From Eledone cirrhosa (lineage: Eukaryota), in the NCBI GenBank assembly GCA_964016885.1, contig CAXHJY010001664.1, positions 1 through 52,999 on the forward strand: 52,999 nucleotides of DNA, read 5' to 3'. Positions 24,081-26,722 of this stretch are shown here, one piece after another. The notes under the pieces are model-generated. The model was given only the letters and a program-made list of their open reading frames with translations, ran no database searches and was not told where the DNA came from. Both the position numbers and the translations under genes were made by a program. Position 1 is the stretch's first letter, and every line of letters begins with the position of its first letter.

Positions 24081-24280
24081 ATAGGAACAGGTAAGACCCC
24101 GACGGCAGAGCTCAAGCCGTTTCGACGGCTAATTCTGGACTGTCCAGAATTAGCCGTCGAAACGGCTTGAGCTCTGCCGTCGGGGTCTTACCTGTTCCTA
24201 TTACCCACTCTACTACCCTAAGTATTGAGTACTTTGGTGCGTTATGGTCCATCTGGTTCCTTACCACATTTCCTTCGTTA
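24081..24280 (+). mobile_element. TA-flanked fold-back element family G (60-bp arms, hammerhead 3' half)
   Basis: Perfect palindrome 24081-24201 centred at 24141. The right arm has GAA-ACGGC ttgagctct GCCGT-C. Relatives at about 3463-3621, 4663-4720, 4918-5045, 27426-27490, 28290-28340 and 34688-34863. Confidence 0.75.
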
Positions 24281-24780
24281 TATATATATATATATATATA
24301 TATATATATATATATATATATATATATATACTTATATATATACTTATATATATATACATATTTATAACCAAAAGTTTATATGGTTCGTAGTTTTTTATTC
24401 TCTCCTTTATTTCATCCTTTCCTTTTCCTTTTCTTCGTTTCTTTATTTCCCTTCTTTTCTCTCTGCATCTGCCCTTTTCTTCTTTTTTTTCTTTAATTCC
24501 CTTCTTTTTTCTTCCAATCTTCCCTTTCAACTCCCCTTCTATATTTCTACCTTGCTTTAGGCCCTCTTCTTCTCTAAGTTTGTCTAACTTTGCCTTTCAT
24601 CCTTACGGGGTCGATAAAATAAAGTACCAGTAATACACTGGTATAATTGCTGGCCTTGTGCCAAAAAGTAGAAACAATTATTTGTGGTATATAAAAGTTG
24701 AGGGTTGGTGAAATAAATTACTACCACTACAGGAATTGAATAATCAAAACCTTAGTGGTATGTCGCTTATCCAATCTCTC

Positions 24781-24849
24781 ATATATTTTATCTGATGAAA
24801 ACGTACTGGAACACCATTGTACCTTTGAAATATGTATAATAAAATATAT
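24781..24849 (+). ncRNA. Type I hammerhead ribozyme motif family D (intron 1, sense)
   Basis: Stem I ATATATTTTAT/ATAAAATATAT (11 bp), CTGATGA at 24792-24798, stem II GTAC-TGG/CCA-GTAC, GAA, near-palindromic stem III ATATGTAT. Predicted cleavage after A24838. Confidence 0.75.
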
Positions 24850-25139
24850 ATTTTGGTGAATATTTTTCATTTATTAATATTTTGAATAATATATATATAT
24901 ATATATATATATAAGATCAAAAGATGGTTAAAAGAGTTCTTTTAACCATTTTTTGAACTTATATATTATTTATACTCCAGTCCTACAAACTGTAGAGTGC
25001 TTCTTATCCGATATCTGCATTATTTTATTGTACTACAATAAAACTCACCTCCTACATATATATAACCACTTCTATATATATATATATATATATATATATA
25101 TATATATATATATATATATATATATGTGTGTGTGTATAG

Positions 25140-25315
25140 AAGTGGTTACACAACAGTTAGTTCACCATACCGAGAACAATTGTTTCACCTTGGCGGAAGG
25201 TGAAACAATTGTTCTCGGTATGGTGAACTAACTGTTGTGTAACCACTTGTACCTAACCCGTCCCATGGACTGAGTGCTCTACCACTACGGATATTACCTT
25301 CCAGTGTTCTACTAC
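25140..25315 (+). mobile_element. TA-flanked fold-back element family I (52-bp arms, hammerhead 3' half)
   Basis: Perfect arms 25140-25191 and 25197-25248 around a GGCGG loop. Reads ACCTT/AAGGT-GAA-ACAATTGT-T. Confidence 0.7.
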
Positions 25316-26482
25316 TATATATATGTATATACATACACACACATATATATATATATATACATATATATATATATATATATATATATATATATATATATAT
25401 ATATATATATATATATATATATATATATATATATATATATATATATATATATATATATATATATATATGTGTGTGTGTGTATGTATATATATAAATTAAT
25501 AAAAACAATGAATAAAAGCAAAGAAACAGTTCCTTATATTAAAAAATTCATCATTTTACGATCGTTTCTAGGATATATATGTGTGTGTTGGTATGTATAT
25601 CATATAGATCTATGTAAAAATTTTACAAACTATCAGAGGGAATATACATACCTACACATATATATGCTGTCTTCAGAAATATATACAGATATATATATAC
25701 ATATATATATATATATACAGATATATATATACATATATATATATACATATATATATATATATATATATATATACAGATATATATATACATATATATATAT
25801 ACATATACACACACACATACATATATATTATATTTATTTATATATATATACATAATACGTATATGTGTGTCTATGTCTGTGTTTACGTCTACGTCTGTGT
25901 ATTTTAGTGTGCTAATTAGATTGTAACCGTCAGTGTGTGTGTAAAACTAATTGACAGATAGCCGAGACAGTTGTAAAGGCTGCCTTTGTTTACAGAATTT
26001 CATTCAGATGAGATACAGAGAAAAAAAGGGAAGGACTGCTCTAGTTTCACACATCATTACAGGCTCATCAGTGTCTACTGTTTCAAAACAGGCAACAGGC
26101 TTGTCTTTTGTATCTCAAGATATAACCGCGATAATTTTACTACAAGTTTGAAAAGAAGTTTACATTTCACACATACCCTGAGTATATTACTAGCGTAGTG
26201 GTGGTGGTCTACATTTATATAATACATTTACATCATATATATATATGATGTAAATATATTATATAAATATTTTATATATATATGTATATATATGCGTATA
26301 TATATATATATTTGAAATGAAGTTTACATTTCACACATACCCTGAGTATATTACTAGCGTAGTGGTGGTGGTCTACATTTATATATTATATTTACATCAT
26401 ATATATATATATATATATATATATATATATATATATATATATATATATATATATATATATATATATATATATATATATATAT

Positions 26483-26722
26483 ATATTTATTAAAATAACA
26501 GATTAAAGTTTAAGCAAAGAATCGCTGCTTTCACCCTTAACGGGATCTTCTGAAACTCAGAGTTTCAGAAGATCCCGTTAAGGGTGAAAGCAGCGATTCT
26601 TTGCTTAAACTTTAATCTGTTATTTTAATAAATATTTGCTCTACGGTTCTTATATATTTGATATATATTTATCCTTATCGAGCCCTCTTTGGATTTTAGT
26701 TTTCAAATTTATTATTATTACT
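26483..26722 (+). mobile_element. TA-flanked fold-back element family H (76-bp arms, hammerhead 3' half)
   Basis: Perfect palindrome 26483-26635 centred at 26559, with GAA-AGCA gcgattctt TGCT-T. Relatives at about 26755-26860, 35035-35105 and 52630-52808. Confidence 0.75.

Follow-up and report, generated by a model that had tools for sequence, protein, structure and literature searches.

How does the end of a retroelement come to stand in a genome as a perfect palindrome, and what decides where the centre of that palindrome falls? The question is raised by the window analysed here, an entire 53-kb contig of a 3.0-Gb, microsatellite-rich assembly. An exhaustive inverted-repeat scan of the window recovered the three perfect palindromes seen at first reading, at 24081-24201 (60-bp arms, 1-nt loop), 25140-25248 (52-bp arms, 5-nt loop) and 26483-26635 (76-bp arms, 1-nt loop). 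According to the original prediction, the stem II hairpin of a hammerhead ribozyme lets the nascent cDNA of a Penelope-like element (PLE) snap back and prime itself, which would inactivate the ribozyme on insertion. The assignment to PLEs is borne out: these are inverted PLE ends carrying hammerhead parts, with a parent element that has an ORF with RT and GIY-YIG. Each palindrome is a head-to-head insertion of the hammerhead-bearing PLE end (pLTR) in a (TA)n tract. The proposed cause is another matter; judged from the sequence, it is likely that the centres correspond to the point at which the capped element mRNA starts.

The three palindromes belong to three families, which we call G, H and I, and share one plan: one arm carries the PLE tail, and the other begins at a fixed internal site (site 2). 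In palindrome 1 (family G), the inverted, tail-less arm (24081..24141, minus strand) has its outer end at internal site 2 beside (TA)n and its inner end exactly at the putative +1 A. The direct arm (24142..24201, plus strand) starts in the 3' part of loop II, and the core, located upstream of the putative start, is absent. What follows on this arm is the 3' strand of stem II (24151-24158), GAAA (24159-24162), stem III with a palindromic loop (24163-24179) and then the GUC site, and the 3' strand of stem I (24182-24186); the tail, from site 2 to site 1, occupies 24202..24279 on the same strand, and in a full element continues into the ORF region. Palindrome 2 (family H) has an inverted, tail-less arm that extends into stem II (25137..25196, minus strand), a direct arm that begins in loop II and has no core in this copy (25197..25251, plus strand), and a tail followed by (TA)n (25252..25315, plus strand). 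In palindrome 3 (family I), the inverted, tail-less arm (26483..26557, minus strand) ends at the putative +1 A and is separated from the direct arm by a non-native C-A-G centre (26558..26560), made up of one spacer base and, 5' of each arm, an additional G that likely comes from the cap; the same centre recurs at other loci. The direct arm (26561..26635, plus strand) contains a hammerhead-like motif, with the proximal stem I 5' strand (26561-26565), the core CAGAAGA (26566-26572), stem II (26573-26585) followed by GAAA, stem III (26590-26604) and the stem I 3' strand (26607-26611), all on the plus strand, and is followed by the tail and (TA)n (26636..26721, plus strand).

Thus described, the right arm of each palindrome does carry GAA(A), stem III and a UH triplet, as had been noticed; the central hairpin, which had been equated with stem II, arises from the inversion itself. 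In family G, the native partner strand of stem II lies about 40 nt upstream and is missing from palindrome 1, and the true stem II of family I, CCC/GGG, is contained entirely within the right arm of palindrome 3; only palindrome 2 of the three pivots in stem/loop II. The core is missing, as claimed, from palindromes 1 and 2, but palindrome 3 retains it where it belongs, after the 5' strand of stem I and before stem II. Other inversions in the window that had been listed as breaking in or beside stem II also exist, but those at 2826-3060 and 42744-42856 retain a CTGATGA core on the direct arm. The window contains further copies of families G, H and I and of other hammerhead-bearing families; the output of a direct-repeat search of the window was dominated by simple repeats.

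Exact tail patterns matched the genome 21,701 times for family G, 2,153 times for H and 9,622 times for I; a pattern containing a private variant matched the window copy only. The parent of family G can be read at one locus (L021, extended as L302), where an inverted tailed pLTR is followed by a partial pLTR, the tail, an ORF and another pLTR, the last with its tail-less end in (TA)n; the pLTRs of this element are thus partial tandem copies, both direct and inverted. Stops and a frameshift interrupt the ORF; it has RT motifs, a GIY-YIG-like motif and a Cys linker of the form CxC-x4-C-x5-C. Because of these features, of comparable RT and EN pieces in copies of H and I, and of GIY-YIG and RVT_1 domains on 12-23% of members among the Atlas neighbours, the palindromes are assigned to pLTR ends of endonuclease-bearing (EN+) PLEs. 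Searches with the ORF pieces gave no match in Pfam (none of four pieces) or in PDB. The linker sequence fits the Neptune/Nematis type, as that type is characterized in the portion of PMC8557442 considered here. Elsewhere in the genome (G000:C1:91473201-91493774) there are five G units in tandem, with a spacing of about 3.54 kb, and one inverted copy, a possible source of read-through RNA.

Two other kinds of element were considered and rejected. A uniform interior between terminal inverted repeats, expected of MITEs and other DNA transposons, is absent, and almost every copy has a centre of its own. Also not seen were the tandem arrays of short units, all with a full hammerhead, by which non-LTR retrozymes are defined in the consulted part of bioRxiv 2026.07.22.740005; the copies are single head-to-head units.

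Intact versions with a core, the existence of which was implied by the original prediction, are found in read-through copies: UUGAGAA in G, CUGAGGA in H and CAGAAGA in I. The family G motif has stem I ACCCC/GGGGU, core UUGANAA (N being G, U or C across subfamilies) and a stem II with a 37-nt loop; its minimum-energy fold in the native form is a three-way junction with stems I-III, with z of -0.9, so that its stability is not unusual. The junctions of H, I and J (a further family, see below) were parsed by eye, and computed folds of I and J did not give the junction. If the core is required to be CUGANGA or a version covariant at positions 3-8, with GAAA and NUH, then G, H (CUGAGGA or CUGAAGA) and J conform, and I departs from consensus by one change, the A at position 4. 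Family G has the G10.1-C11.1 pair; H, I and J have U.U at this place. No hammerhead family was among the matches listed in one Rfam scan (best 150 of 484) or in a second scan, and the top matches of the window were microsatellite noise.

The history of these insertions is better judged from a sample chosen without regard to the pivot. Using the tail pattern alone, we took from contig C1 the first 90 places for G, 50 for H and 70 for I. An H locus that was a duplicate and an I insertion that had been reached from both sides were dropped, and ten I calls due to (TA)n and one with a 78-nt insert were reclassified as not inverted. Inverted copies make up 67/90 in G, 27/49 in H and 31/69 in I. With 125 of 208 sampled copies inverted and thousands of genomic copies per family, the palindromes are not products of chance. 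One inverted G copy without an arm upstream of the anchor was omitted from later counts, leaving 66. The inverted arm begins at site 2 in 107 of 124 copies (60/66 in G, 20/27 in H, 27/31 in I), and tails on both arms occur in three copies. A subfamily-specific 10-mer was common to both arms in 40 of 56 cases, against 9.4 after permutation, and both arms therefore come from one template. In at least one copy (L183), the arms are from different G subfamilies, which suggests two RNAs in one insertion.

The arms also differ in length in an informative way. In 33 copies, the upstream extent of the tail-less arm exceeds that of the tailed arm by more than 20 nt, and the reverse is seen in 13. A tailed cDNA that copies itself cannot give a longer tail-less arm, and a tail-less cDNA cannot supply a tail, so that two primings are required, in those 33 copies at any rate. 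Arm ends are nonetheless more symmetric than independent draws would give, lying within 4 nt of each other in 29 of 66 G copies (18.8 expected) and 5 of 31 I copies (1.6 expected), with an excess that is not significant in H; this symmetry also fits fold-back in some copies.

Where, then, do the arms stop? As anticipated, the breakpoints are strongly non-uniform. In a 13-nt window at one motif, the sampled copies have 91 of 116 arm ends in family G (8.7 expected), 23 of 45 in H (3.3) and 17 of 73 in I (3.3), the test windows having been picked after inspection of the data. Tailed, tail-less and non-inverted arms end at the same place, and the stop is therefore set by the template, not by length. 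The ribozyme cleavage site showed no enrichment of arm ends in the same sampled copies. Judged by the consensus sequence of the initiator (Inr), the hot spot falls in each family on an initiator-like A: TTAGTC or TCAGTC in G, CCATTA or TCAGTA in H, and TTAGTT in I. Its structural place is loop II in G, a stem I bulge in H, and stem I in I and J. Palindrome 2 pivots 15-20 nt downstream of the main H cluster. A minor cluster of H ends in loop II (window 25192-25197, together with L156, L157, L165, L287 and L290), about 30 nt downstream of a TATAA word, is possibly a second start site.

The base directly 5' of the pivot A is also telling. Among the first 100 of 3,644 matches in family G that have a purine there, scored by eye, it is G in 88 and A in 12; the first 100 of 2,734 matches in family I have 56 G, 23 A and 21 C; and the first 100 of 367 in family H have 43 G, 35 T and 22 A, a weak excess with T almost equal to G. 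Head-to-head pairs with G on both arms number 15 among the matches listed, nine of them with a 1-nt spacer. There is no comparable excess of G at positions neighbouring the pivot A, and a second candidate A in family G has no extra G. The main native G context has T or C at that place 2,084 times and A or G not once, a zero below what point mutation alone would give, so that the search may undercount; nor did this search reveal any read-through copy into which strand transfer had brought a cap G. Of 21 G-preceded family G arms in the loci examined, ten exclude other sources of the base, eight could have borrowed it from the partner arm, and three probably belong to a subfamily with a native G. 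One G subfamily (L039, L229) apparently has such a native G immediately 5' of the pivot A, which may go back to a cap-derived base that became fixed in an ancestor. About 35 G arms seem to extend 1-7 nt beyond the proposed +1, and the start would therefore have to be a small cluster. Contigs from three of four runs of unknown kind, all of one study that is possibly the source of the assembly, have loose ends at both priming sites of the G element; 4 of 12 joints in same-study contigs aligned to this element are on the pivot, which is not independent support.

Family J was examined after the hypothesis had been recorded, and serves as a held-out test. Its palindrome (42895..43040) has an intact CTGATGA core in both arms, and its direct arm starts with an extra G at the A that, in the native element, is 30 nt downstream of the family's TATA box. 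What natively precedes the pivot A can be read from a read-through copy (5115..5230, minus strand): TATAAATA stands exactly 30 nt before it. Three of the four non-native arm ends in this family are preceded by G, and there is one C-A-G centre. A TATA at -30 is lacking in families H and I, and in family G the TATA-like word differs between subfamilies. Hammerhead-bearing subfamilies with canonical CTGATGA, grouped as family K (window 2826-3060, 24784-24850 and 36305-36600), include inverted copies with long spacers that retain the core; their TATA spacing was examined and is not decisive.

The observations to be explained are the parent element, the arms defined by site 2 and by the tail, the predominance of same-subfamily arms, the single stop on the template, and the initiator-like motif with its extra G. 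On balance, we think it probable that each palindrome was assembled from two short cDNAs, primed on one capped sense mRNA, run off at its 5' end and joined 3' to 3'. The element protein would cut both target strands and prime at two places, site 1 and site 2, within the mRNA's 5' pLTR copy, where only 60-150 nt would be left to the transcript start, and both cDNAs would run off the cap. The RT may add C opposite the cap and sometimes one further base; the two 3' ends may then be joined by an end-to-end template jump or by host end joining, and the spread of junction positions would be due to trimming and microhomology. Arms of greater length would result if priming took place in the 3' pLTR or if the template were tandem read-through RNA. 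The core would be lost only where the putative start is downstream of it, as in G, and short G copies presumably lack it because their start is in loop II.

In retroviruses and LTR elements, minus-strand strong-stop DNA is likewise a short cDNA: the RNA template is terminally redundant, synthesis is primed close to its 5' end, and the product reaches to the cap. The PLE products differ in that they would be target-primed, without a tRNA primer, and integrated directly in pairs, and in that no cap G was found in read-through copies. We put forward more tentatively, as a proposition that falls somewhat short of probable, that PLEs integrate by priming in pairs on a sense mRNA that is capped and terminally redundant; that most insertions in such a genome would be strong-stop-like cDNA pairs joined cap-end to cap-end; that the C-N-G centre may be a fossil of both the start and second-strand synthesis; and that some starts would lie inside the hammerhead, leaving the 5' copy in the mRNA unable to self-cleave. 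Several of the steps have precedents in the parts of the literature considered here: cutting of both target strands and priming at two sites have been shown in vitro for PAc (PMC11167929), the extra G at L1 5' junctions is taken as a mark of the mRNA cap (PMC11702581), and PLE start sites have been located in the pLTR (PMC2377424, PMC8557442).

How do other explanations fare against the paired-priming reading? Snap-back of the nascent cDNA on stem II, with removal of the core, has in its favour palindrome 2 and one more H copy (L287), both of which pivot in stem/loop II; the G hot spot does lie within loop II, and the G palindromes do lack the core. The geometry that it predicts is seen, all the same, in one of 124 inverted copies (0/66 in G, 1/27 in H, 0/31 in I), and the tail-less arm is frequently the longer. 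Inactivation of the ribozyme on insertion is a fair description of G, where 4 of 66 copies keep the core, but in H and I it is kept on at least one arm in 23/27 and 23/31, that is in 46 of 58 copies, and we regard this explanation as very improbable. These counts largely refute it, and at most a minority of copies could be accounted for in this way; palindrome 2 is the one case that answers to the original description. Still less credible is that the palindromes are MITEs amplified as units, or artefacts of assembly or amplification. MITEs have TA flanks and perfect arms, and in this respect the palindromes look the part; against this, junctions vary from copy to copy, one arm is tailed, the sequence is the pLTR of an RT-encoding element, the arms carry independent later mutations, and there are thousands of loci on many contigs.

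Two further explanations accept a fixed stop and deserve more weight, unlikely as both are. The better of them keeps the stop at the capped 5' end and supposes that the second arm comes from one cDNA, which either folds back or serves a host polymerase as template, the second priming supplying the other target junction only. It would account for arms that are nearly always of the same subfamily, including rare variants present on both (L059, L210), for the excess of symmetric junctions, and for locally templated insertions at some junctions (L003, L009, L216). A hairpin would, for steric reasons, need more than 0-1 unpaired nt to prime itself, and the centres of palindromes 1 and 3, like those of 9 of the 15 pairs with G on both arms, would be too tight for that; strongly asymmetric copies, in both directions, also speak against it. 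Somewhat less likely again is that RT pauses at the pivot because of the hammerhead fold, or that the pivot is a loop sensitive to RNase, the extra G reflecting a terminal-transferase preference or the partner arm. Every hot spot is indeed inside or at the edge of the hammerhead, ends are scattered over about 15 nt, and the partner arm could supply part of the G excess. Yet the structural element differs by family and the initiator-like A does not, neighbouring positions have no G excess, and family J has its TATA at -30.

Much of the general architecture is already published. As described in the parts of Arkhipova et al. (2013, PMC3846280) and Craig et al. (2021, PMC8557442) considered here, EN+ PLE insertions have partial tandem pLTRs, an inverted 5'-truncated head-to-head copy, a tail at one end, palindromes at the inverted junction and (TA)n targets, all of which recur in our families. 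The differences are that most insertions seen here are tiny, pLTR-only palindromes, that tails are about 65-85 nt long as against 30-40 in those elements, and that junctions fall at one template position with an extra G. Self-priming had been proposed for junction palindromes in 2013 (PMC3846280), on an antisense template, whereas our data point to a sense and likely capped one; both the formation of inverted ends and the choice between sense and antisense templates are stated to be open in the same portions of PMC3846280 and PMC8557442. In the Poseidon element PAc (Frangieh et al. 2024, PMC11167929), both target strands are extended as well as cut, as would be the case in our families; the targets are AT-rich, as they are here, hammerhead cleavage is not needed, and two internal initiation sites are separated by an interval equal to the tail, which matches site 1 and site 2. 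The part of that report considered here concerns other element families, and offers no account of inverted copies and no description of run-off at a capped 5' end. L1 twin priming (PMC11702581, the part considered) also involves two primings on one RNA that yield an inverted segment, and an extra G from run-off at the cap; L1 segments, however, span different parts of the RNA, whereas the two arms here are copies of one and the same stretch and would be joined where the RNA has its 5' end.

The motifs themselves resemble the PLE hammerheads of Cervera and De la Pena (2014, PMC4209133), as far as the portion considered describes them, in being of type I, located in the pLTR, with a palindromic helix/loop III, and in the U3-A8 core covariation, seen here in family G; pairs of motifs on opposite strands are reported there from Schistosoma. 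Set against these, the 37-nt loop II of G, the U.U of H, I and J in place of G10.1-C11.1, and the A at position 4 of I are departures. Our literature search, with subscription papers and supplements outside its scope, found no paper that links the PLE inverted junction to a start site or cap. Tens of thousands of independent junctions amount to a population-scale readout, which favours a sense, capped template and two primings. The in vitro PAc system would gain sharp tests, PLE promoters may become mappable from genome sequence alone, and many short palindromes, a large class liable to be mis-annotated as MITEs or microRNA hairpins, would be explained.

Several minor features of the window deserve mention. 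A hammerhead-like element with CTGATGA (family L) is found directly beside palindrome 1 (23926-24012, minus strand) and at 43200-43288; ends of different PLE families cluster within the same (TA)n tracts. An abundant repeat, head-to-head copies of which also occur, is present at 44740-44866, 28918-28976, 568-638, 4075-4145, 24622-24683, 27245-27308 and 49074-49137, and is in part similar to a segment of the family G 3' UTR. CTGANGA...GAA motifs at 45529-45560 (plus strand) and 26040-26071 (minus strand) are single-copy in the window. A decayed reading frame at 32781-33152 (minus strand) resembles what we take to be the C-terminus of a LINE-type RT protein.
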